Shown here in pieces: positions 445 to 54,319 of a stretch of 64,000 nucleotides of DNA. The stretch spans positions 65,404 through 129,403 of the forward strand of contig JAADHJ010000006.1 in the NCBI GenBank assembly GCA_013151915.1, read 5' to 3'. The translations under genes were made by a program, and so were the position numbers. Source of the DNA: Deltaproteobacteria bacterium (GTDB lineage Bacteria > BMS3Abin14). The notes under the pieces are model-generated. The model ran no database searches. It was given only the letters and a program-made list of their open reading frames with translations, and had not been told where the DNA came from. The first letter of the stretch is position 1. Each line of letters begins with the position of its first letter.

Positions 445-1428
445 TTGAACACCCTTAAGCGCCTGTCCCGTGATATAAGGGTTCGCCATAGCCTCTCCTG
501 GAGTCTTCTCGTCCTCATCCTCCTCGGTATTATCCTCGTAATCGGAAGAGCCACAAAGAAGATCGATTACATCTGGCAATGGCAGCGAATGCCACGATAC
601 ATCCTTTTCAAGGAACAGATAGATATTACGGCGGAGGATCCGGGCACGATTTCCTCCATCAGGAATGATGGAAAGGACAAAGTGGTCATCCTGCGCACTT
701 TCGACGGAAAGGACGAAACATACCGAATCCCCGCCGGGATAGTACAGGTTTACGAGGGCGATGATCTGGATTCAGGGGATATCATCGGGTCATACAAAAA
801 ATGGGCGGTCGGGATTCTTCTCATCGGCCTATGGCTCACCCTTAAGATGTCCTTCATTTCGGTTATTCTGGCGGTGTTCATCGGGCTCATCACAGGTCTT
901 GCACGGATATCCTCCAGCCCCGCGCCCAAGTGGCTGGCCATAGGATACATCGAGTTGATCCGTGGAACCCCTCTTCTGGTCCAGCTTTACATCTTTTACT
1001 TCTTTATCGGGCAGCTATTCTCACTGTCCAACGAGGTCGCCGGGATCCTGGCCCTCTCCTTCTTCGCCGGTGCATATGTGGCGGAAATCGTGCGTGCCGG
1101 GATCCAGTCGATTCACAGGGGACAGATGGAGGCCGCCCGATCCCTCGGTATGACCTACCCACAGGCCATGCAGTTTATAATTCTTCCCCAGGCTTTCAAG
1201 CGCATAATGCCGCCCCTCGCCGGCCAGTTCATATCGCTTATCAAGGACTCGTCCCTGGTATCAATCATCGCCATTACGGATCTCACCAAGGCGGGCCGCG
1301 AGATCGCAACCTCAACGTTCAGCCCCTTCGAGGCATTCTTTACCGTCGCGGCCCTTTATCTTGTCCTTACCTTCTCCCTTTCCATGTTCGTCCAGTACCT
1401 CGAGAGGAGGTATGCAACTCATGATTGA
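445..1428 (+). CDS. amino-acid ABC transporter permease (His/Gln/Arg/opine family) with N-terminal extension
   Basis: Multi-TM protein with the conserved EAA loop ([22 protein letters not shown]). It sits between a binding-protein gene and an ATPase gene. Confidence 0.85.
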
Positions 1429-2152
1429 AGTACGAAACGTCTCCAAGACCTTCTACACCACACACCAGGTCAACGCCCTTACCGATGTCTCCATGCAGGT
1501 CGACAGAGGCGAGGTAGTGGTCATCATGGGTCCCTCCGGCTCGGGAAAGAGTACGCTCCTGCGCTGCCTTAACCATCTGGAGACCATTGACGAAGGGGAG
1601 ATTATAATCGACGGAATCACCCTCACCGATTTCATGACCGACATAAACAAGGTCCGTGCGGAAGTGGGCATGGTTTTCCAGAGCTTCAACCTTTTTCCCC
1701 ACATGACGGTAATGAACAACATAACCATCGCCCAGGTAAAGGTCCGGGGCCGATCAACCAGGGAGGCTGAGGAGACCGCCATGAAGCTGCTGGACAAAGT
1801 GGGGATCCCCGAGAAAGCCCCTGTTTACCCCGGCCAACTTTCGGGCGGACAGCAGCAGCGGGTGGCCATCGCGCGGGCGCTTGCCATGCAGCCGAAGATC
1901 ATGCTCTTCGATGAGCCCACCTCGGCCCTGGATCCTGAGATGATAGGTGAGGTTCTGGACGTCATGAAAACTCTGGCACGCGAGGGGAGGACCATGATTT
2001 GCGTTACCCACGAAATGGGTTTCGCGAAGGAGGTGGCCGACAGGACCATCTTCATGGACGAGGGAAAAATCGTGGAGGTGGGAACTCCTCAGGACATATT
2101 CAACAATCCGCAGAACGAACGTACGAAGCTGTTCCTTTCCCAGATACTGTAA
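1412..2152 (+). CDS. amino-acid ABC transporter ATP-binding protein
   Basis: Walker [13 protein letters not shown] signature [15 protein letters not shown] and Walker [12 protein letters not shown]. An ATG at 1412 is preceded by GAGGAGG and overlaps the permease stop (the ORF track started at 1361). Confidence 0.9.
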
Positions 2153-2157
2153 GGAAA

Positions 2158-2189
2158 CCAGTCCAGAGTCCAGTGTCCAGAGTCCAGAG
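2158..2189. repeat. heptamer tandem array GTCCAGN x4
   Basis: Direct reading gives cc AGTCCAG AGTCCAG TGTCCAG AGTCCAG agg, immediately after the ABC ATPase stop. Confidence 0.8.
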
Positions 2190-2252
2190 GGGAAAGATAG
2201 ACACGGGGACATAAACGCTATGATTTCACGCTCCTCAACGCTAATATAACCG

Positions 2253-2324
2253 TGTGACATTGGGTGGTCTCCTTAGTTTGGTTTCCGCTAAAACTCAAAC
2301 TATCAAGACTTAACCCAATGTCAC
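2253..2324. other. 12-bp perfect inverted repeat (GTGACATTGGGT ... ACCCAATGTCAC) forming a potential long hairpin
   Basis: Both arms read directly from the sequence. The ~48-nt intervening segment contains AAGGAGACC on the minus strand. Confidence 0.7.
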
Positions 2325-2353
2325 CTCTTTTTATGCGTTTCGCTTGAATCCGC

Positions 2354-2420
2354 GACTCTGGACTCCAGCACTCTGGACTCTGCACTCTGGACTATTTTGA
2401 AGACTCTGGACTATTTTGAA
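2354..2420. repeat. inverted-orientation CTGGAC(T) array, including two 19-bp units AGACTCTGGACTATTTTGA
   Basis: This is the reverse complement of the GTCCAGAG array at 2158-2189. It sits just upstream of the flavin reductase start. Confidence 0.8.
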
Positions 2421-2431
2421 ATGAGGCAAAG

Positions 2432-2998
2432 ATGAAAAAACGAACCGTCAAACCTTCAACATTCCTGTGTCCCGTACCCGTTGTCCTGGTGACCTGTCAG
2501 GACAAAGGGGGACGACCGAACATCATCACCATCGCCTGGACGGGCATCATCTGTTCCGACCCGCCCATGGTCAGCATCAGCATCAGGCCAAGCCGGTACT
2601 CCCACGGTATCATCAAGGAGACGGGCCAATTTGTGGTCAATATCCCCCCTGTGGACATTATCAGGAAAGTCGACCTTTGCGGCATCATCTCCGGAAAGGA
2701 CGCGGACAAATTTAAAGAAGCCGGCCTGACCGCGGTCCCGGCCGACAAAGTGTCCCCTCCCCTCATCGAGGAGTGTTCCATCTCCCTGGAGTGCAGCCTC
2801 ACCGAAATAGTCCCACTGGGAATTCACGACATGTTTCTGGGCGAGATCATGGCCACCCACGTAGCCGAGGATGCTTTCGATGACGGTGGAAATATCCGTA
2901 TGGGAAGAATCAATCCCCTGGCCTTTTCACCGCTGGACCATTCCTACAGGGCGCTGGGCGACGCGTTGGGGAGCTACGGGTACAGCCGGAAGGATTGA
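2432..2998 (+). CDS. flavin reductase-like (FMN-binding split-barrel) domain protein
   Basis: The N-terminal CPVPVVLVT...GRPN...IAWTG...PPMVSISIRP pattern is typical of the flavin reductase-like domain. Length is 188 aa. Confidence 0.75.
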   Translation: MKKRTVKPSTFLCPVPVVLVTCQDKGGRPNIITIAWTGIICSDPPMVSISIRPSRYSHGIIKETGQFVVNIPPVDIIRKVDLCGIISGKDADKFKEAGLTAVPADKVSPPLIEECSISLECSLTEIVPLGIHDMFLGEIMATHVAEDAFDDGGNIRMGRINPLAFSPLDHSYRALGDALGSYGYSRKD

Positions 2999-4981: not shown

Positions 4982-5019
4982 ACGGCTTCCTCCGGAAAAT
5001 TACCACCCACCTCATTTTT

Positions 5020-5448
5020 TGGTTCATCCTGGAAATGAGTACCTGAAGGATGACCAGATTTTGTGAAAAGCTAACTTAACACAGGGTGCACAGAGTTTCA
5101 CAGGGTAACACAGGGTTTATTCAAAACAAGTTAACGAGGTTTCGCGAAGTTTAAAACCAGGACCTTGTGGTTTTCAGACCTCCTCTGCCTGCCAAGCCGA
5201 CTTGTCAGCCATAGCTTTAGCGACGGCTGAAGCTTTACGCAAAGGCTGGTTAAACCCTCCTTTAAAACCCTGCCTGTCCTGAGCTTGCCGAAGGGCGGTA
5301 CAGCCTGCAAATCACGCCATCGGCGTGACCGTGGTAAATCAGCTCTTGACCTTTTCAGCTCCGCCCGGGATTGCCGCGCCTACGGTTTCACTCGGGCTCG
5401 CAATGACAGCAAAATAATAATAAAGGTACGCATTAACCGGATGAACCC
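5020..5448. mobile_element. MITE-like non-autonomous element, family A, copy 1 (~429 bp)
   Basis: Terminal inverted repeats GGTTCATCCTGGAAATGAGTACC (5021-5043) and GGTACGCATTAACCGGATGAACC (5425-5447). There is no ORF inside. Flanking CATTTTTT / CATGTTTT is a possible 8-bp target duplication. Homologous copies lie at 42759, 60680 and 62472. Confidence 0.7.
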
Positions 5449-5660
5449 ATGTTTTAAACATACCATCCAATTTACTTTTGGGTGATTCTGGAAGTATTGG
5501 TCATTATTCAATAGCCGTCAAGATGTACCTGTGTACCTTTTTCGGCCCTTGCCCAAAAAAGGATGATTATGTATCTTTTCTCCGTACCATCACGATAACG
5601 CATATCAGCGATCAGCATTACTCATGGCGCTGTTTGCGAAAGGACAAATTGGAGGAAATG

Positions 5661-7678: not shown

Positions 7679-9004
7679 CTACCCTCTACCTCCCTCCCCC
7701 CGTCCACGCCGGAACCTCAATCGTATGGGGTTTCCGGCGAAGCCGGCCTCTTCCCTGATCCGCCCCTCAAGGTATTTCACATAGTTCTCCCTGATCTCGC
7801 CGGGACGATTTGTGAAGATAAGGAAGGTAGGTGGATGGGTCAAAGTCTGGGTAGCGTAGTAAAAGCGGACCCGCCTGCCCCTTACCAGAGGGGGCTGGTG
7901 ACGCTCAACAGCCCTTACCAAAAGGTCGTTCAGCTCCCTTGTGGGGATCTTTTTCCCGGCTTCCCCGTAGACGGTTTCCACCGCATCAAAGATCCTCCCG
8001 ACCCGCATCCCGGTGAGGCTCGACAGGGACACTATGGGTGCATGGTTGAAGAAGAAGAGCTGCTCCCGAATATCCTTGCACATACGGTCGAACGTCATAT
8101 GGTCCTTTTCCATCAGGTCCCATTTGTTTAGAACAACAACCAGCCCTCTGCCGCGATCCTCGGCCAGCCCGGCCAGGCGGATGTCCTGTTCCACCAGGCC
8201 CTCAACGCTGTCAAGGAGAAGGAGGCATACATCACACCTTTCCAGTGCGGATATTGCTCTCATGACCGAATGGCGTTCCATGTCCATCCTGATCCTGCTT
8301 CGCCTGCGCACTCCAGCCGTATCGACAAACAGATAATGTCTTTCCCCATGCTTCAACAGCGTATCGATACTGTCCATGGTTGTGCCGGGGATCTCGGAAA
8401 CAAGCAGCCTCTCCTCTCCCAGGATACGGTTGATCAGGGTGGATTTCCCCGTATTTGGACGTCCGATCACGGCAACCCGTATATCCCATTGCTCCCGGGT
8501 GGTCTCTCCCGCATCCGGCAGGTCCAAAACAACCTTCTCCAACAGTTCAGCCACCCCGGCCCCGTGAAGCGCTGAAACGGGCATCACACTGCCTAACCCC
8601 AGTTCAAAAAACTCCGCGGCTTCCATCTCACGCTTGTCCCCCTCGGACTTGTTGGCGACAACGATGACCGGTTTTTCGGTCCTCCTGAGAACGTCGGCAA
8701 CCTCCATGTCGGCGGGTGTAAGGCCGTCGCGGGTATCCAGAACAAAAAGAATGACGTCCGCTTCTCCTATTGCCAGCATGGCCTGATCCCGGATAAGGGG
8801 AAAAAATCCCTCCTCAACGGTGGGGTCCAGTCCCCCCGTATCCACCAGGGTAAATTCCCTTCCCGTCCACGAGGCGACACCGTAGTTTCTGTCCCTGGTA
8901 ACCCCGGAGGTGTCATCCACGATGGCCTTTCTCCTGCCCAGAATCCGGTTGAACAGGGTTGATTTGCCTACATTGGGACGTCCCACGATGGCTACGACCG
9001 GCAT
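7679..9004 (-). CDS. der: ribosome-biogenesis GTPase Der (EngA), tandem GTPase domains
   Basis: Two G1 motifs (GRPNVGKST and GRPNTGKST) and a C-terminal KH-like domain. Length is 441 aa. Confidence 0.95.
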   Translation of the reverse strand: MPVVAIVGRPNVGKSTLFNRILGRRKAIVDDTSGVTRDRNYGVASWTGREFTLVDTGGLDPTVEEGFFPLIRDQAMLAIGEADVILFVLDTRDGLTPADMEVADVLRRTEKPVIVVANKSEGDKREMEAAEFFELGLGSVMPVSALHGAGVAELLEKVVLDLPDAGETTREQWDIRVAVIGRPNTGKSTLINRILGEERLLVSEIPGTTMDSIDTLLKHGERHYLFVDTAGVRRRSRIRMDMERHSVMRAISALERCDVCLLLLDSVEGLVEQDIRLAGLAEDRGRGLVVVLNKWDLMEKDHMTFDRMCKDIREQLFFFNHAPIVSLSSLTGMRVGRIFDAVETVYGEAGKKIPTRELNDLLVRAVERHQPPLVRGRRVRFYYATQTLTHPPTFLIFTNRPGEIRENYVKYLEGRIREEAGFAGNPIRLRFRRGRGEGGRG

Positions 9005-9008
9005 CTTC

Positions 9009-10205
9009 TCAACCCCCCTTTTTCAGGTCCTTGATGAAGTCCGCCTGCAGGTCATGGATCCCCTTTCCGGTATAGGACATCATGGCTTCCTCGAGGGAGA
9101 GCCCCCGCTGCAGATCCGATACGATAACCGGGATCATATTTTCCCCGTATTTTCCTTCCAGGTATTCAATAAATAGATAACTGGCCGCATAGGCCATGTT
9201 CCTCTTATCGGCGGGAAGGCTGACGTAACTGTCACCGAAAGAAAGCAGATCGAGAGAAAAGGCACCCTTCATGGCGTCCCGCAAAACCCTCTTCATCTCC
9301 ACCGTTTTCCTTGCGGACGGCCTCTCCCCCAACTTCTGAGCCACTCCCTCCTGGAACCAGGCGGGAAGAACGCCGCCTGCCTGACGAAGGAGGGCGTGAA
9401 CCATCTCATGACGAACAGTTCGGGTCAACACATCCCTGTCGTTTAATGAATCTCCCAGGTAGAGACGTATCCTCCCATCGTAGATACCTTTGAAAGCCGG
9501 GTCCACCGGTTTGGCTTTTTCACCCAGGTCCTCGGTCATGAGCAGAACATCGATGGGATGGGAGGGGAAAATCCCAAGGGCCGCGGTCAGGGAATCCATC
9601 TCCTCCTGTAGAATGGCCAGCAGTTCCCCCTCGAACTCAAGCTGTCTGGCCCCGCTGTAAAGCAGCCGGAAATACTGCCCCTTCTCGGCCACCATACCTT
9701 TATCCTCCTCCATGAGGCTCTCCAGGCGGGCGATATACTCACGGAGATTGGGAAGATCGGGATGGAACGCGGCCAATCTCACGGCGAGATTCCACGCGTC
9801 CTTGTATCTGCCATCTTCATAGTAACGGCGGGAGAGGCTGTTTAAAGCTTCCGGATTTTCCGGCCATACGCTCAGGGCTTCCTTTAACAGGGCTTCATTT
9901 TCCTCGATCCCTCGACCATTTTCCGCCGTCCGGGATAACCGGGCCAACCCCAGGGAGAGATTTTGGGCGATAACCGAATCTCCAGGTTTTGCGGCCCTCG
10001 CAGCACGGAGAATTTTCACGGCTCTCTCAAATTTCCCCTCCTTCATAAAGGTGATCCCCTGTTGGTTCAGGGCATGCGAGTCCGTCACTTTTCTATTTTC
10101 CAAAACGGGTTTTGGTCCCGTGAACGATGGCAGCCCTCTGTTGATGGCCAGAATCACGATGATGCACCCCACCCCTGCGATCAGCACTGCAACGGCCTTA
10201 TTCAT
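9009..10205 (-). CDS. TPR-repeat protein with C-terminal HExxH (peptidase MA-like) domain, signal peptide
   Basis: A signal/TM segment at the MNKAVAVLIAG start, TPR-like helices, and VRHEMVHALL with a downstream E (zinc-metalloprotease-like). The start was moved to the Met at 10205 to remove overlap with the next gene. Confidence 0.6.
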   Translation of the reverse strand: MNKAVAVLIAGVGCIIVILAINRGLPSFTGPKPVLENRKVTDSHALNQQGITFMKEGKFERAVKILRAARAAKPGDSVIAQNLSLGLARLSRTAENGRGIEENEALLKEALSVWPENPEALNSLSRRYYEDGRYKDAWNLAVRLAAFHPDLPNLREYIARLESLMEEDKGMVAEKGQYFRLLYSGARQLEFEGELLAILQEEMDSLTAALGIFPSHPIDVLLMTEDLGEKAKPVDPAFKGIYDGRIRLYLGDSLNDRDVLTRTVRHEMVHALLRQAGGVLPAWFQEGVAQKLGERPSARKTVEMKRVLRDAMKGAFSLDLLSFGDSYVSLPADKRNMAYAASYLFIEYLEGKYGENMIPVIVSDLQRGLSLEEAMMSYTGKGIHDLQADFIKDLKKGG

Positions 10206-24127: not shown

Positions 24128-25291
24128 CTAACCCTCATTTCTTTCCATAATTTCCGTTAATTTTTCCAGAAAATATTTGTTTTCATCGGGGTTGCCGATG
24201 GTCACTCGAAGGTGGCCGGGAAGACCGTATCCCGCCATGGGACGGACGATAACGCCATTTTTCAGCAGTGCCTGATAGACTGTCTCCCCCTTTGGGTCCA
24301 TAAGATCGACAAGCAGAAAGTTACCGGCCGAAGGCGCCGCCGAAAGTCCAAGGGAACGGACACCGTCCGAAACCCGCTCCATCTCAATCCTGTTCAACCT
24401 GACGGCCTCCCTGATAAATTCCTGGTCCCCAAGGGCAGCCGCAGCTGCCGCCTGTCCCAAGCTGTTGACATTGAAGGGTTGGCGAACCCTGTTAAGAAGG
24501 TCTGCAAGCTCCTCGGGCATCACCGCATATCCAACCCTGAGCCCGGCCAGACCATAGGCCTTGGAGAAGGTCCTCGTCACAACCAATGACCGGCCCTGTT
24601 TGACAAGTTCGATCCCGTCGGGATAGTCCGGCCGATCCATGGCATATTCGAAATAGGCCTCGTCAAGGACCGGCACCACATCCTCCGGCAATGCGTCGAG
24701 AAACCTCTCCACATCGGGTCGGGCTACATAGGAACCGGTGGGGTTGTTGGGGTTGGCGACAAAGACAATTCGGGTATCCGGGGTAACCGCCTCGGCCATG
24801 GCCCCAAGATCGTGCGCCATGGCGGTGTCAAGAGGCACCTCAACACCCCTGCCCCCGTGGGCAAGGGTACAAAGTCGGTAGACGATAAACGCAGGCCAGG
24901 CGTACACCGTTTCAGCACCTTCACAAAGGAGGAGCTGGGCAAGCAGTTCGAGAATTTCGTTGGACCCGTTTCCCAGAACAATCATCTCACCGGGCACACC
25001 ATGTTTTTCAGCCAACAGCCCCTTCAGATGGTAGGCGCTTCCGTCTGGATAACGATTGATGCCGTTCAATGCCTCCTGAACCGCCTTTCTCGCCAAGGGA
25101 GACATCCCCATGGGGTTCTCGTTGGAGGCCAGCTTGATTATCCTCTCCAGGCCCATCTCCCTTAAAAGCTCTTCAATGGGTTTTCCCGTTTGGTAGGGAA
25201 CCAGATTTTCCACCGATCCGTATGCCGTGCGGTATTTGAGCTGTTTCATATTTTTAAGTCCCATGTTTAAATAACAAGGTTCAACGTTCAA
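24128..25291 (-). CDS. hisC: histidinol-phosphate/aromatic aminotransferase (class II PLP)
   Basis: HisC-family signature FSKAYGLAGLRVGYAV. The first ~9 codons of the ORF are encoded by the GTTCAAN tandem array, so the true start may be a downstream Met (~25249). Confidence 0.85.
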   Translation of the reverse strand: MNVEPCYLNMGLKNMKQLKYRTAYGSVENLVPYQTGKPIEELLREMGLERIIKLASNENPMGMSPLARKAVQEALNGINRYPDGSAYHLKGLLAEKHGVPGEMIVLGNGSNEILELLAQLLLCEGAETVYAWPAFIVYRLCTLAHGGRGVEVPLDTAMAHDLGAMAEAVTPDTRIVFVANPNNPTGSYVARPDVERFLDALPEDVVPVLDEAYFEYAMDRPDYPDGIELVKQGRSLVVTRTFSKAYGLAGLRVGYAVMPEELADLLNRVRQPFNVNSLGQAAAAAALGDQEFIREAVRLNRIEMERVSDGVRSLGLSAAPSAGNFLLVDLMDPKGETVYQALLKNGVIVRPMAGYGLPGHLRVTIGNPDENKYFLEKLTEIMERNEG

Positions 25292-25335
25292 TGTTCAAGG
25301 TTCAACGTTCAATGTTCAACGTTCAAGGTTGAACG
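25278..25335. repeat. heptamer tandem array GTTCAAN x8
   Basis: Reads gGTTCAAC GTTCAAT GTTCAAG GTTCAAC GTTCAAT GTTCAAC GTTCAAG GTTGAAC, in the pheA-hisC junction. Confidence 0.85.
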
Positions 25336-25337
25336 GG

Positions 25338-26171
25338 TCATTTACCTTCAACTGTTCCTTTAGGATAAGACCCCAACACCTTCATAAACATGCACATTTT
25401 CTCCAATTTACGGAGGGCATCCCGCACCGCCGAATCATCCTTGTGTCCCTCAAGATCGATGAAGAAGACATAGTCCCACGCCTTCTTTTTTGAGGGTCTC
25501 GACTCGATTTTCGTCAGGTTGATCCCCGCTTCGCCGAACGGTCTGAGGATCTCATAGAGGGCCCCGACCTTGTCCTTGATGGAGAAAACCAGTGAGGTTT
25601 TATCATTCCCTGATGATGCCGTGGGATGGGTTGAAAACACCAGGAACCGTGTGAGGTTCTCCTCCCAGTCGCCGATATTCTCCACAAGCGTGGGGATTCC
25701 ATAGAATTGCGAGGCCATCGCACCGGCCACAGCCGCGGTTCCCTCCTGAGAAAGGCAGAAAGCCGCCGCCTCAGCTGTGCTCCTGGCGTCTACAAACGCT
25801 GCGCCCCTGAGGTTTTTCCGCAGCCAGTGCCTGCATTGGGCAAATGGCTGCGGATGGGAGTAGACCTTTACAATCCCCCGGATATCTTTTTCCCGCGACA
25901 GAAGCATCAGCCGAATGGGTAATATGACCTCGCCTGTGATGACGAGGGTGGAGTCCACAAGGAGATCCATGGTGGATGTAACCACACCCTCATTGGAGTT
26001 CTCAACAGGCACCACTCCCCGATGGGCTTCGCCCTCCTGGACCGCGGTGAAAACATCGTCAATAGTCTCTGCCGGGATATATTCCACACCCTCCCCGAAC
26101 GCACGCCACGCCGCCTGATGTGTAAACGTGGCCTGGGGACCCAGGTAGGAAATATCCATACGCGATGCCAC
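25338..26171 (-). CDS. pheA: prephenate dehydratase with C-terminal ACT domain
   Basis: MDISYLGPQATFTHQAAWRAFG N-terminus and the PDT/ACT architecture. Length is 277 aa. Confidence 0.85.
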   Translation of the reverse strand: MASRMDISYLGPQATFTHQAAWRAFGEGVEYIPAETIDDVFTAVQEGEAHRGVVPVENSNEGVVTSTMDLLVDSTLVITGEVILPIRLMLLSREKDIRGIVKVYSHPQPFAQCRHWLRKNLRGAAFVDARSTAEAAAFCLSQEGTAAVAGAMASQFYGIPTLVENIGDWEENLTRFLVFSTHPTASSGNDKTSLVFSIKDKVGALYEILRPFGEAGINLTKIESRPSKKKAWDYVFFIDLEGHKDDSAVRDALRKLEKMCMFMKVLGSYPKGTVEGK

Positions 26172-30643: not shown

Positions 30644-32203
30644 TTATTCCCACTCAATGGTGGCCGGAGGTTTGGAACTTATGTCGTAGACAACCCGATT
30701 TACTCCACGGACCTCGTTAATGATTCTGTTGGAGATTCGGCCCATGAGGTCATAGGGAAGGTGTACCCAGTCCGCTGTCATGCCGTCAAGGCTGGAAACG
30801 GCCCTTACCGCAAGGACATTCTCGTATGTTCTCTCATCACCCATGACGCCCACTGTCTTGACTGGAAGGAGGACGGCGAATGCCTGCCAGATGGAATCGT
30901 GCAGACCCGAAGCGAGGATTTCCTCCCTGACTACAGCGTCAGCCTCCCCGAGGATGAACAGCCGCTCTCCGGTTACCTCACCGACAATCCTGATCGCCAG
31001 GCCGGGACCGGGAAACGGGTGCCTTTTGAGAATCGCATCAGGAACCCCAAGTTCCCTGCCGACCTCCCGAACCTCATCCTTGAAAAGTTCCCGGAGGGGT
31101 TCGATCAACGTAAGATTCATTACCTCCGGGAGCCCTCCGACGTTGTGATGGCTTTTAATGGTGGCCGAAGGCCCCTTGAATGAAACGCTCTCGATGACGT
31201 CAGGATAGAGGGTCCCCTGGGCCAGGTACTTCACGTTTCCGATCTTCGCAGCTTCTACCTCAAAAAGTCGGATAAACTCGTTCCCGATGATTTTTCTCTT
31301 TTTCTCGGGTTCATGGACACCCGAAAGTTTCTTCAAAAAATGTTTTCCGGCATCGAGAACAACAAGGGGGATGTGAAGGTGATCGGAGAAAACGGAACGG
31401 ACCCCCTCGACCTCACCCTTTCGCAGAAGACCGTTATCCACAAAAACGCAGGTCAGCCGGTTGCCGATGGCCCTGTGAACCAGCACGGCCACAACGGAGG
31501 AATCTACCCCGCCGGAAAGAGCGCAGAGAACCCTTCCGTGGTCTCCCACCTCCCTTTTTATCTGGTCGACGGTGTTTTCAATGTAGGAGTGAGCGGTCCA
31601 CAGGGGCCGCAGACCGCAGATCCGGAACAGAAAGTTCTCAAGTATATCTTTCCCCCTGGGGGTGTGCACAACTTCGGGGTGAAACTGGACCGAAAAAATC
31701 CTGGAAGCGCGGTCCTTCATGGCAGCCACGGGTGAATTTGTTGTGTGCGCGATGGGGACAAAACCGGGTGGCGCCGACTCGATACGGTCACCGTGACTCA
31801 TCCAGACCTTTATGCGGTCCTCGGCGCCCGTCTCAAAACCCGCAAACAGATCCTCGCTGTCATCGATCTGGAGAAGAGCGGGGCCATATTCACGGTGATG
31901 GGCTTTCCCGACCTTTCCCCCGAGAAGGTGTGTAATGAGCTGCATACCGTAGCAGACACCCAGGAACGGAACATTCAGATCGAACAGCTCCACGGGAACA
32001 AGGGGGGCACCCTCGTCCAGGATACTGGAAGGTCCCCCGGACAGAATAATGCCCCCGGGCTCGAAGTCCCGGATCTTCTCCATGCCTGCAGTACAGGGCA
32101 GGATCTCACAGTACACCTTCAGTTCCCGGACCCTGCGCGCGATAAGCTGGGTGTACTGGCTTCCGAAATCGAGGATCAGTATCTTTTCTTCATGCAGATC
32201 CAT
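30644..32203 (-). CDS. guaA: GMP synthase (glutamine-hydrolysing)
   Basis: N-terminal GATase ([20 protein letters not shown]) and [10 protein letters not shown]-loop. Confidence 0.95.
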
Positions 32204-32210
32204 TTAATCC

Positions 32211-32306
32211 ATCCAGTGGAGTCCAGGGTCCAGAGTTCAGTGTCCAGAGTCCAGTGTCCAGGGTCCAGTGTCCAGGGTCCAGAGTTCAGAGTCCAGAGTT
32301 CAGAGG
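32211..32306. repeat. heptamer tandem array GTCCAGN/GTTCAGN x~13
   Basis: Thirteen consecutive 7-bp units. The array starts 8 nt upstream of the guaA start codon and therefore lies in the guaB-guaA spacer / guaA leader. Confidence 0.85.
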
Positions 32307-32361: not shown

Positions 32362-33852
<1,491 letters not shown>

Positions 33853-33926
33853 TCATGATCATTGCCGAAATCGGTATTATTGGGAGCTTTCGCTCCTCGG
33901 GTCCCGTGTTCCGGCCGTTTTATCAC

Positions 33927-34012
33927 GTTGGACGTTGGACCTTGGACCTGTTTACTCTACAGCCTATAGCCTATAGCCGATCGCCTGCCTTTACCTGCAG
34001 CCTACAGCCTGC
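33927..34012. repeat. short tandem arrays: GTTGGAC x3 (rc GTCCAAC) followed by CTAYAGCC units
   Basis: Reads ACGTTGGACGTTGGACCTTGGACC, then CTACAGCCTATAGCCTATAGCC ... CTGCAGCCTACAGCC, about 100 bp upstream of guaB. Confidence 0.75.
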
Positions 34013-34160
34013 TTTGCCATGCAGTTACGAAAACACCGCCCAGGCGGTGTGATGAAAATGAGATACCTATTGAAGGAGTTACCCGATGAATTAGGCGAGA
34101 TTAGAGGCAATGGGCAGATGTGTCAACATGTGATTTCCCGAATGTTTCCCGAAAGGAAAA

Positions 34161-51589: not shown

Positions 51590-54319
51590 TCATATCCTGC
51601 GCCTGTACCTGCGCATCAGTAGTGAGTTTGTAACGACGGACACGGAGCTGAAGGCCATAGCCGCTCCGGCGATGATCGGACTGAGCAGAAACCCTGTGAA
51701 CGGATACAGGATGCCGGCGGCAATGGGGAGACCGAGGGCGTTGTATATAAAGGCCCAGAAAAGGTTCTGTTTGATCTTGCGCATGGCGAAGCTGGACAGA
51801 TCCATGGCCATGACCACATCCCGGATGTCGTCCTTGATAAGCACGATGTCGCCTGATTCTATAGCCACATCCGTGCCGCTGCCGATGGCGATCCCGATGT
51901 CCGCCTGGATCAGCGCGGGGGCGTCGTTGATGCCGTCCCCAACCATGGCGACCTTGAGACCATCGTCCTGGAGTTTTTTCACCTCGGCTGATTTGTCCTG
52001 GGGAAGCACCTCGCTAAGCACCCTGTTTATCCCCACCTGGGCGGCGATGGCCTTAGCGGTCCTTCTATTGTCGCCGGTGATCATTACCACCTCCTTACCC
52101 ATCTTTTGCAGAGCCCCGACAGCCGCCGCAGAGTGTTCCTTAAGGGTGTCGGCCACCGCCAGGATTCCGGCAACATCGTTGTCAACACCGACGATCATCG
52201 ACGTTTTGCCCTGCTCCTCAAGCCCGGTCATCGCCTCGTCTGCGTCCTTCAGGTCCAGACCCGCCTCGGTAAAGTAGGCCCGGTTTCCGATGACAACTTT
52301 CCGGCTGTTCACAGTGCCCTCGACACCTTTCCCGGTAATGGAGATAAAGTCCTCAGGCGGCGTCAACTCCAGACCCTTGGCAAGAGCGCCGTTCACGATC
52401 GCCTCTCCCAGAGGGTGTTCCGAGTTCTTCTCGACGGAAGCGGCAAGTTGAAGCAAAAGGTCGGAGTCCCAGTCCCCGAAGGTCCCCACATCGGTTAACT
52501 CGGGTTCCCCTTTGGTCAATGTGCCTGTCTTGTCGAACACCACCGTGTCTATTTTATGTGCTATCTGAAGCGCCTCCGCGCTCTTGATGAGGACCCCGTT
52601 CTTGGCACCCAACCCGGTGCCCACCATGACGGCGGTGGGGGTTGCCAGCCCCAGGGCGCAGGGACAGGCAATGATGAGCACAGCGATGAACACGGTCAGG
52701 GCGAAGATGAAGCTCTGGCCGGCCAGCATCCAGATGCCGAAAGCGACCAGGGCGATTACTACCACACCCGGAACGAAATAAGCCGAAATGAGATCCGCCA
52801 ACGCCTGGATAGGGGCCTTGGAGCCCTGGGCCTCTTCCACCAGGTTGATGATCTGAGCCAGGGCCGTGTCCTTGCCGACCTTGGTGGCCCTGAATCTGAA
52901 GGAGCCGGTCCTGTTCATGGTGGCCCCGACGACCTCGTCGCCCACGGTTTTTTCCACCGGGATACTCTCACCCGTGAGCATCGACTCGTCCACGGCCGAA
53001 TACCCGTCAATGATGATTCCGTCCACGGGGATCTTCTGTCCCGGTTTGACCAACACTTCATCGCCCGTGTGCACCTCCTCAACCGGGATCTCCATCTCCC
53101 GGCCGTCTCGCACGACGAGGGCGGTTTTGGCCTGGAGCCCCATCAGCGACCTGATCGCTTCGGAGGTCTTTCCCTTGGCTATGGCCTCAAGCCACTTACC
53201 CATCAGTATGAAGACAATAAGAAGCCCGGCGACCTCAAAATAAAGATTCTCTGCCGAGTAGCCGGGCTTCCCGGACCAGATGGCGACCAGTACCGCCGTA
53301 CTGTAGATCCAGGCGGCGCCGGTACCAAGGGCCACCAGTGTGTCCATGGTTGCCATCCGGGTCTTGATAACCGAGAGAATACCCCTCGTGTAGAACTGGT
53401 AGTTGACGAACAGTATGGGAGTGGCCAGGAGGAACTGCAGGATGGACTCCCACCTGGCCGGCATGTGGGGCACCGGTATGCCCACCAGGGGCCCCATGGT
53501 GAGGGTGACGAGAGGCAGGCCCAGGACAGCCGAGAAGATGAACTTGAGCTTGAGGATCTTGATCTCCCGGTCCCTCGCCTCCTTCTCCCGGTCCAGGGTC
53601 TCTTCCGTCTCCTCCAGGGGTGTGTATCCCGCGTCCCGTATCGTCTGGAAGATCTCTTCCCTGCTGATAACGGCAGGATCGAAGTCGATCTTGGCCCTCT
53701 CGTTGATGAAAAGTTCCTTGGATAGGATCCCCCGCAAGCTGTTCAGGACGCCCTGAACCGTTCCAAGGCAGTGGGGGTTGTCCATTCCTACGACCTTCAG
53801 GTCAAGGTGCCCGGCGCGCGCCTCTCTTATATGGGGTGTATAGCCTGCGTCCACGATGGCCTTTTCAAGGTCCTGGTAAGAGACGGCGGCGGGGTCGAAT
53901 CGGACCATCGCCGATTCGGCCGCGAAGTTGACGTTTGCTTCCGACATGCCGTCAAGCTTCGACAGAGCCTTTTCGATGGTCGACGCGCACGATGCGCAGT
54001 GCATGCCGGTTATTCCCATGGTGACCGTCTTTTCGGCGGGTGCCTCCGCATCACTTTTCTCCGGCAAAGGTATTTCACGGGCTTCAACTGAGACCCCCGC
54101 CTCGAGTTCCGGAGCACCATTCTCTTCCTCTGGACCCTGGACTCCCGACTCCGGACTTCCGGCTCCGGAATCCGGAGTCAGGAATTTGTCCCTGCACCCG
54201 GGGCTGCAGAAGTACCAGGTCTTACCGTCCTTCTCCCCGGAAAGGGCTGTGCTCTCATCCACCTCCATGCCGCATATCGGATCAACCACCATCTCTGAAC
54301 CCTTCTTTTCCGGTTTCAT
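51590..54319 (-). CDS. copA: Cu(I)-translocating P1B-1 ATPase with N-terminal YHS/TRASH plus HMA domains
   Basis: N-terminal [35 protein letters not shown] motif GMHCASCAS, plus a second degenerate HMA. CPC motif ([12 protein letters not shown]), [15 protein letters not shown]. Confidence 0.9.

Follow-up and report, generated by a model that had tools for sequence, protein, structure and literature searches.

Tandem heptanucleotide arrays with a GTYCAR core in gene spacers of an uncultured deltaproteobacterium-like lineage

Heptamer arrays in the window and their gene context

The window, the whole 64,000-nt stretch of DNA analyzed here, carries short tandem arrays of 7-nt units, most of them in the spacers around guaB and guaA, between pheA and hisC, and beside a transporter operon. 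The names guaA, guaB, hisC, and pheA had been assigned in an initial annotation made from the sequence alone, and they are correct. Arrays were located with Tandem Repeats Finder (TRF), and a period scan was run separately over periods 6-12. The genes and features that matter for the argument are the following:

1361-2152, plus strand: ABC-transporter ATPase gene, a context gene
2160-2189, plus strand: ABC-transporter-side array, TRF unit AGTCCAG (GTCCAGN) x4.3, left arm of an inverted pair
2354-2420, minus strand: flavin-reductase-side array, right arm of the same pair, with interrupted CTGGACN/CTCTGGA-type units on the plus strand and a 19-nt duplication inside
2432-2998, plus strand: flavin-reductase-like gene, a context gene
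24128-252xx, minus strand: hisC, by a profile model match
25275-25335, plus strand: pheA-hisC array, GTTCAAN x8.7, reading UUGAACN on the sense (minus) strand
25338-26171, minus strand: pheA, a context gene
30644-32203, minus strand: guaA (NF000848, 797.9 bits)
32211-32306, plus strand: focal array, GTCCAGN/GTTCAGN x13; the TRF call is 32219-32305, GTCCAGN x12.4, and a degenerate unit at 32211-32218 brings the count to 13
32362-33837, minus strand: guaB (TIGR01302, 650.6 bits)
33925-33947, minus strand: first guaB-upstream array, GTCCAAN x3.3 on the minus (sense) strand
33957-33986, minus strand: second guaB-upstream array, CTATAGC x4.3 on the plus strand and AGGCTAT/AGGCTGT on the sense strand, with a core that differs from GTYCAR
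34030-34115, minus strand: promoter-like site and hairpin upstream of guaB
54130-54185, minus strand: tract of period 7/14 within copA (51590-54319), containing GTCCAGGGTCCAG on the minus strand; the TRF call is 54139-54185

All five heptamer arrays of the initial annotation were detected by TRF where it had placed them, as head-to-tail units in 3.3 to 12.4 copies, and they lie far above shuffle expectation. There are 23 occurrences of GTYCARNGTYCAR, which corresponds to two adjacent GTYCAR units, in the window; 100 dinucleotide-preserving shuffles gave 0.22 on average and at most 2. The period scan gave 8 hits for period 7, covering 271 nt, and zero hits in the window for period 6 and for periods 8-12. 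Two period-7 arrays, at 33957-33986 and within copA, come in addition to the original five. That the five sites form a family with a shared core therefore holds insofar as they are related and non-random, but AGGCTAT/CTATAGC and further unit families coexist with them and fall outside the GTYCAR core.

Non-coding DNA makes up 9.7% of the window in the curated ORF map, yet 6 of the 7 arrays are inside it (binomial estimate ~5e-6). The nearest start or stop codon is 3-15 nt away for 4 of the 6 intergenic arrays, while both guaB-upstream arrays are at least 88 nt from the guaB start. The tie between arrays and gene boundaries that had been proposed earlier is thus borne out. Arrays occupy 4 of the 25 spacers of 50 nt or more in the window and none of its 7 divergent spacers. 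The copA tract is an intragenic member of the repeat class; it falls in a coding linker of a CopA-type ATPase, with the Cys-rich N-terminal domain on one side and the metal-binding domains on the other. A separate repeat of period 10/20 (TAACACAGGG x4) is found at 5077-5118, within the divergent 496-nt spacer 4982-5477, and its unit is unrelated to the heptamers.

The focal array occupies the 158-nt guaB-guaA spacer, where its sense strand reads (CUGGACN)13. It had been described as a guaA leader ending 8 nt before the start codon. The array does adjoin the ATG at 32203, but the distance is 7-15 nt, depending on the degenerate unit. Neither a promoter-like nor a terminator-like site was predicted in this spacer, which, together with the operon layout, suggests that the array is transcribed within the guaBA mRNA. 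The sense RNA of the spacer is less structured than its shuffles (z +1.67), 193 of 200 of which fold at least as well.

Between pheA and hisC, the array starts 3 nt past the pheA stop codon and ends 10-25 nt ahead of the likely hisC ATG. An overlap with the hisC translation start, as originally claimed, is true only if TTG 25291 is the start codon. Two ATGs, at 25264 and 25249, are conserved with the syntenic locus of a close relative (L001, described below), and the alignment to the hisC model does not begin until residue 27 of the TTG-25291 ORF, so we place the array between the two genes, with the likely start not overlapped. RNA of this spacer has no excess structure relative to shuffles (z -1.45).

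The 33925-33947 array lies 88 nt upstream of the guaB ATG and had been assigned to the guaB promoter region. Upstream of guaB, 4 lineages share a conserved -35 hexamer, TTGACA or TTGACT, with TAATCT at a spacing of 17 nt (in the related locus L128, TAACGT), and, ~45-50 nt beyond this promoter-like site, a GC-rich hairpin with a T-run (TTTTCG tail) whose stem shows compensatory changes. The equivalents of the window feature are at 7975-8085 in L001, ~8190-8300 in the related locus L126, and ~8375-8460 in L128. The region has no Rfam match at the gathering score and may represent an attenuator close to the promoter, or a small RNA, ahead of guaB. Both guaB-upstream arrays of the window are downstream of the conserved TTGACA-17 nt-TAATCT site and of the hairpin, which contradicts the promoter assignment; the 33925-33947 array more likely sits in the guaB leader. 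In L126, unlike in the window, a CTGGACT array is found immediately upstream of the -35 site, so the placement of arrays relative to regulatory signals is not conserved.

At the other end of the window, the 2160-2189 array begins 8 nt past the stop codon of the ABC-transporter ATPase gene, and the 2354-2420 array ends 11 nt before the ATG (2432) of the flavin-reductase-like gene. The stretch 2150-2435 is predicted to fold with the two arrays as an outer stem (-99.5 kcal/mol, z -5.99); inside this stem lies a long hairpin followed by a T-run. This inner hairpin, at 2250-2330 between the arms of the pair (GTGACATTGGGT…ACCCAATGTCAC, then CTCTTTTTAT), is probably the terminator of the ABC-transporter operon, and a simple terminator scan misses it because its loop is long. 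An exact 19-nt tandem duplication (ACTCTGGACTATTTTGAAG x1.9) at 2384-2420 overlaps the heptamer array and directly precedes the ribosome-binding region of the gene at 2432-2998.

Promoter and terminator scans of the window predicted no site at the arrays. With no GC hairpin and U-tract predicted there, a classification of the arrays as intrinsic terminators was rejected, as was membership in a described structured RNA family, since Rfam gave no match in the window at the gathering score. When six array-rich loci were compared with Rfam at E <=0.1, only sub-threshold eukaryotic miRNA hairpin models and no bacterial family appeared.

Variation among relatives and spread of the core

GuaA of the window is 100% identical to a protein assigned to an uncultured Deltaproteobacteria MAG and 92% identical to that of "bacterium BMS3Abin14", which NCBI lists only as an unclassified bacterium. 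At the syntenic locus of BMS3Abin14 (L001), heptamer arrays with different units and copy numbers occupy the same three spacers as in the window:

guaB-guaA spacer of L001: ATAGGCN x6 and GTCCAAN x4, the latter with an inverted NTTGGAC partner
pheA-hisC spacer of L001: TGGAACC/TGGTGCC
upstream of guaB in L001: AGGCTAT x6, the same unit family as window 33957-33986 and at the orthologous place

The inverted pair of L001 (9854-9880 with 9936-9962), in its guaB-guaA spacer, folds into a hairpin. More distant relatives with ~80% GuaA identity, L126 and L128, have heptamer arrays in nearly every spacer of the guaB-guaA-dnaE-accA-pheA-hisC-aroF cluster, and the units are quite different (ATCTCAA/TCTGAGA, AATCACG, GTGTCTG/CCAGACA, ATCTGGA, GTTTGAR, and again GTCCAGN/CTGGACT); several of these arrays form inverted pairs.

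Copy number was compared among close relatives, as the initial annotation had suggested, and length differences in 7-nt steps were found. In a Logan contig with 92% GuaA identity (L125), spacer flanks near-identical to those of the window enclose ~2-3 CTGGACN units versus 13, and 2 metagenome samples with identical GuaA (L128 and L129) differ by an exact 7-nt indel inside an array of the guaA-dnaE spacer (L128 11675-11702); these copy numbers are taken from short-read assemblies. The description of the arrays as hypermutable spacers is supported by both cases. Four BMS3Abin14 assemblies are identical over 271 nt of spacer, which indicates that the arrays are not wildly unstable, with the proviso that the assemblies may derive from the same raw data. 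An exact 32-nt junction search of metagenome contigs returned no match. A GuaA-based metagenome scan recovered relatives at <=68% identity only, and the resulting 80 loci (L389-L468) serve as a background set rather than as conspecific alleles. The arrays therefore persist spacer by spacer while their number and sequence change fast, which is the behavior of slippage-prone SSRs and not of conserved operators.

The GTYCAR core extends well outside this lineage. Exact (GTYCARN)4 was found in at least 120 stretches of a species-representative genome collection (L005-L124), where uniform base composition would give ~1 match per 1.2e12 positions by chance. Carriers among the matches listed include Acidobacteriota, Planctomycetota, Verrucomicrobiota, Bacteroidota, Desulfobacterales, Cyanobacteria, and Gammaproteobacteria, with Photobacterium frigidiphilum, Xenococcus PCC 7305, and Rhodoplanes serenus as isolates. 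At least 120 viral contigs (L130-L249) contain (GTYCARN)4, versus 84, 40, and 18 for three control cores of the same composition, the first of which (CTYGARN) is an imperfect control because CTTGAAC arrays satisfy both patterns. Among the matches listed, GTTCAA is the commonest core and the GTCCAG of the window the rarest of the four. In the same matches, arrays of 4-5 units are the most frequent, a peak that is biased because the scan demanded 4 exact units. The outer side of an array is a median of 15 nt from a stop codon and 46 nt from a start codon (crude ORF calls, among the matches listed). We conclude that the GTYCAR core is a real and widespread unit family, one of several in this organism, and that it is probably over-represented. 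Searches of the literature for the GTYCAR units as such gave no result.

The distribution also argues against the earlier proposal that the arrays tune the expression of purine and aromatic amino-acid genes, since the spacers of relatives hold unrelated units at shifted positions and, across many phyla, the genes beside arrays of this core are unrelated.

Period 7 is prominent irrespective of the unit. It accounts for 30 of the 59 TRF arrays in the clade loci (23 per 100 kb) and is the commonest non-triplet period in the 80 unrelated environmental guaA loci (<=68% identity; 49 arrays, 11.8 per 100 kb), where many of the arrays are immediately before or after guaA. This dominance agrees with Mrazek 2007, as summarized in PMC4679880, according to which heptanucleotides outnumber the other classes of long SSR in most prokaryotic genomes. 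In the clade loci and the control loci (L389-L468), many heptamer arrays with unrelated units are ~30 nt long (4.0-4.9 copies). This length, in arrays that are not G-rich, echoes the preference for "four units" that has been ascribed to G-quadruplex formation in Xanthomonas.

Polarity of the inverted pairs

Inverted GTYCAR pairs less than 400 nt apart have a strongly preferred order. Among the matches listed, (GTYCARN)n-spacer-(NYTGRAC)n outnumbers the opposite order 37:1 in genome loci and 47:4 in viral loci, and at least 3 of those 4 exceptions are gaps between neighboring pairs. The binomial estimate for this bias is ~1e-10 per set. The window pair (2160-2189 and 2354-2420) and the L001 pair both follow the same polarity. 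At the variable seventh position, the bases of one arm complement those of the other in 37.5% of cases, compared with 33-37% in shifted registers, so a pair behaves as two oriented arrays rather than as a selected perfect hairpin, and selection for a perfect hairpin was dropped as the main explanation. No U-tract follows the right arms in the pairs inspected. The inverted pairs therefore resemble neither perfect hairpins under selection nor intrinsic terminators. Two properties of the unit were considered as causes of the polarity, its stop-codon content (a UGA in every YUGAAC unit, and hence in all three frames) and the -35-likeness of TTGAAC, and neither can be extended to the CTGGAC units that dominate the window.

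Some viral contigs contain 3-5 copies of a composite intergenic element (L144 152-2287; L159 1163-7769; L222 11804-14338; also L189, L204, L168, and L218). Its parts are, in order, a GC hairpin, GTTCAAK-GTTCTAT-GTTCAAY-GTTCAAT, a spacer with CCTCTCTTTCC or its complement, and (YTTGAAC)4. The conserved odd second unit GTTCTAT and the conserved CCTCTCTTTCC spacer make the element look copied rather than slipped and suggest a regulatory cassette.

Origin of the arrays and relation to known repeats

We consider it likely, short of firm, that the five sites are heptanucleotide SSRs of the STRR / long-SSR class, generated by slippage and co-transcribed with their neighbors, with incidental effects on expression and no dedicated regulatory system. 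They share with that class tandem 7-nt units in at least 3 copies, an excess of period 7, a non-coding bias, variation in copies and units, and convergent inverted pairs. Slipped-strand mispairing at replication would create and resize the arrays, and they would persist where they are found because 7-nt steps are tolerated only outside reading frames. Those in the guaB-guaA and pheA-hisC spacers would be carried in the mRNAs of these genes, where spacer length and RNA structure would affect expression, if at all, only incidentally. A partnerless array, like that of 13 units before guaA, would provide a weakly structured leader without AUG, GUG, or UUG start codons, and two facing arrays could pair into a long hairpin broken at every seventh base. 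The shared GTYCAR core would reflect one dominant, widely distributed unit family and not a common operator. Pure slippage does not explain why pairs have one polarity (37:1 and 47:4 among the matches listed), nor does it explain the apparent clustering at 4-5 units, a count biased by the 4-exact-unit scan, or the excess of the core over controls in viral contigs (at least 120 versus 84, 40, and 18).

The fixed polarity, seen in two independent collections among the matches listed, would be expected if the arrays were oriented multimeric sites for a putative sequence-specific nucleic-acid-binding protein with a ~7-nt footprint per unit, which would set the translation or mRNA fate of adjacent genes. 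Putative candidates would be a DNA-binding factor or an RNA binder of the cold-shock-domain or S1-like type. The absence of seventh-position complementarity above background (37.5% versus 33-37%), the copy-number peak at 4-5 units among the matches listed, and the way arrays abut start and stop codons all fit such sites, and the same idea has been put forward for TAACTGA repeats (PMC4679880). We nevertheless judge it unlikely here, though worth keeping in view, since unit sequences are not conserved at orthologous sites, several unrelated unit families occur within one genome, and the neighboring genes have no common function. Paired arrays might instead act at the RNA level, as hairpins that stabilize or process polycistronic mRNAs (like REP/BIME or RNase III sites) or terminate transcription. 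The folding of window 2150-2435 with the arrays as its outer stem (z -5.99), the hairpin predicted for the L001 guaB-guaA pair, and the position of arrays shortly after stop codons (median 15 nt among the matches listed) agree with this role. It is weakened by the lack of excess complementarity at the seventh position, by right arms without a U-tract in the inspected pairs, and by the focal 13-unit and pheA-hisC arrays, which are partnerless and no more structured than shuffles (z +1.67 and -1.45), so that we see it as rather improbable.

Polarity that runs from outside to inside is also a property of transposon ends and REPINs, and the spread of arrays over many phyla and at least 120 viral contigs, along with the recurrent viral element whose odd unit GTTCTAT and conserved CCTCTCTTTCC spacer look copied, might indicate that the pairs are mobile or copied elements of the REPIN or MITE type, mobilized by a transposase or spread by phages, with single arrays as decayed half-elements. 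Yet the 164-nt interior of the window pair (2190-2353) is found only once in the window and in none of the compared loci, and target-site duplications are not evident by eye in inspected pairs, which led us to reject a MITE or REPIN classification. Arm-to-arm spacers range from 2 to more than 300 nt with unrelated content, and orthologous sites change by unit steps; mobility is accordingly a doubtful explanation. Variable copy number, and one array that adjoins a ribosome-binding region, would fit contingency (phase-variation) switches that turn guaA, hisC, or guaB on and off. The genes concerned are housekeeping biosynthetic genes, however, and the arrays are found in the spacers of guaBA, pheA-hisC, and the transporter operon, neither inside reading frames nor between -35 and -10 elements; a classification as phase-variation contingency loci was rejected, as it had been for the Xanthomonas and Nostoc repeats (PMC4692102), and we regard switching as very improbable. 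A more inclusive proposal treats GTYCARN arrays as one cis-element family across many phyla and phages, made of ~4-5-unit modules that usually form dyads of fixed polarity, with arms not selected to pair, recognized by a conserved putative binding or mobilizing factor (REPIN-like or operator-like), and the window arrays as expanded members. Recognition by such a protein or a mobilization mechanism is the main alternative to slippage; it is conceivable, but we would not expect it to be the case.

Read as slippage-prone SSRs, the arrays have published counterparts. The initial annotation stated that no described system matches, but intergenic heptanucleotide repeats of the same anatomy have been reported (PMC4692102, PMC4679880, PMC2700814), and the first two of these papers both cite Mrazek 2007. 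Rehm et al. 2015 described GGGAATC/GGGANTN arrays in two Xanthomonas genomes (186 and 183 arrays, 89-93% intergenic), mostly of four units and up to 26, with 70-75 convergent inverted pairs (PMC4692102). These are ~28 nt from the 5' neighboring ORF and always convergent, vary in length and sequence between Xcc and Xac, and adjoin genes of all functional classes, and no regulatory role was found for them (PMC4692102). The arrays described here resemble the Xanthomonas GGGAATC and Nostoc GGGGA(C/T)T repeats (PMC4692102) in their 7-nt tandem units with 1-2 degenerate positions, in being ~90% intergenic and close to an ORF, and in typically having ~4 units with a long tail and frequent convergent pairs of fixed polarity. 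In both, the same spacers are occupied in related species with differing length and sequence, and neighboring genes are of all classes. They differ from the Xanthomonas and Nostoc repeats in that the unit, GTYCARN, is not G-rich, that several unit families coexist, and that the host is an uncultured deltaproteobacterium-like lineage. Since GTYCARN is not G-rich, G-quadruplex formation cannot be the rationale here.

Cyanobacterial STRRs, with units such as CCCCAGT, TTGGTCA, and CAACAGT, have a lineage-specific abundance, and some are within transcripts. The arrays of the window are like the STRRs of Calothrix PCC 7601 and Anabaena/Nostoc in being tandem heptamers dispersed over intergenic sites, each genome having several unit families, while the units and the phylum differ. 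For Calothrix PCC 7601, the report cited by PMC4692102 concerns tandem repeats of three distinct heptanucleotides. TAACTGA repeats of marine Beggiatoaceae (MacGregor 2015) are present in 2-6 copies a few nucleotides upstream of start codons, and a binding protein was hypothesized for them (PMC4679880). Short heptamer arrays near starts, neighbors without a common function, and patchy sharing across phyla are common to these repeats (PMC4679880) and to ours; the TAACTGA repeats, however, are nearly always direct and point the same way with respect to the gene, a single indirect repeat having been reported, whereas both orientations and inverted pairs occur here, and the unit is different. In Geobacter metallireducens, dozens of sites carry four or five heptanucleotides in tandem (GGACCGG; MTYCTGA), and their annotation is as putative regulatory elements (PMC2700814). 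In that case the copy number is fixed inside longer conserved elements, some of them within genes, in contrast to the ~3 to 13 copies found here. REP, BIME, and REPIN elements are likewise abundant and intergenic, often inverted doublets of fixed polarity, and hairpin-capable, but REPs are 20-40-nt imperfect palindromes linked to RAYT transposases and not tandem heptamers.

The finding adds one lineage and a unit family that is not G-rich to the long-known heptanucleotide repeats of bacteria. The same anatomy, with intergenic placement, pairs of fixed polarity, and rapid turnover, is seen here without a G4-capable unit, which weakens the G4 rationale proposed for Xanthomonas and points to a general cause. 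If polarity and cross-phylum spread do reflect recognition by a protein or mobilization, these arrays would offer a testable route into an old question; otherwise, they would be useful mainly as hypervariable strain markers.
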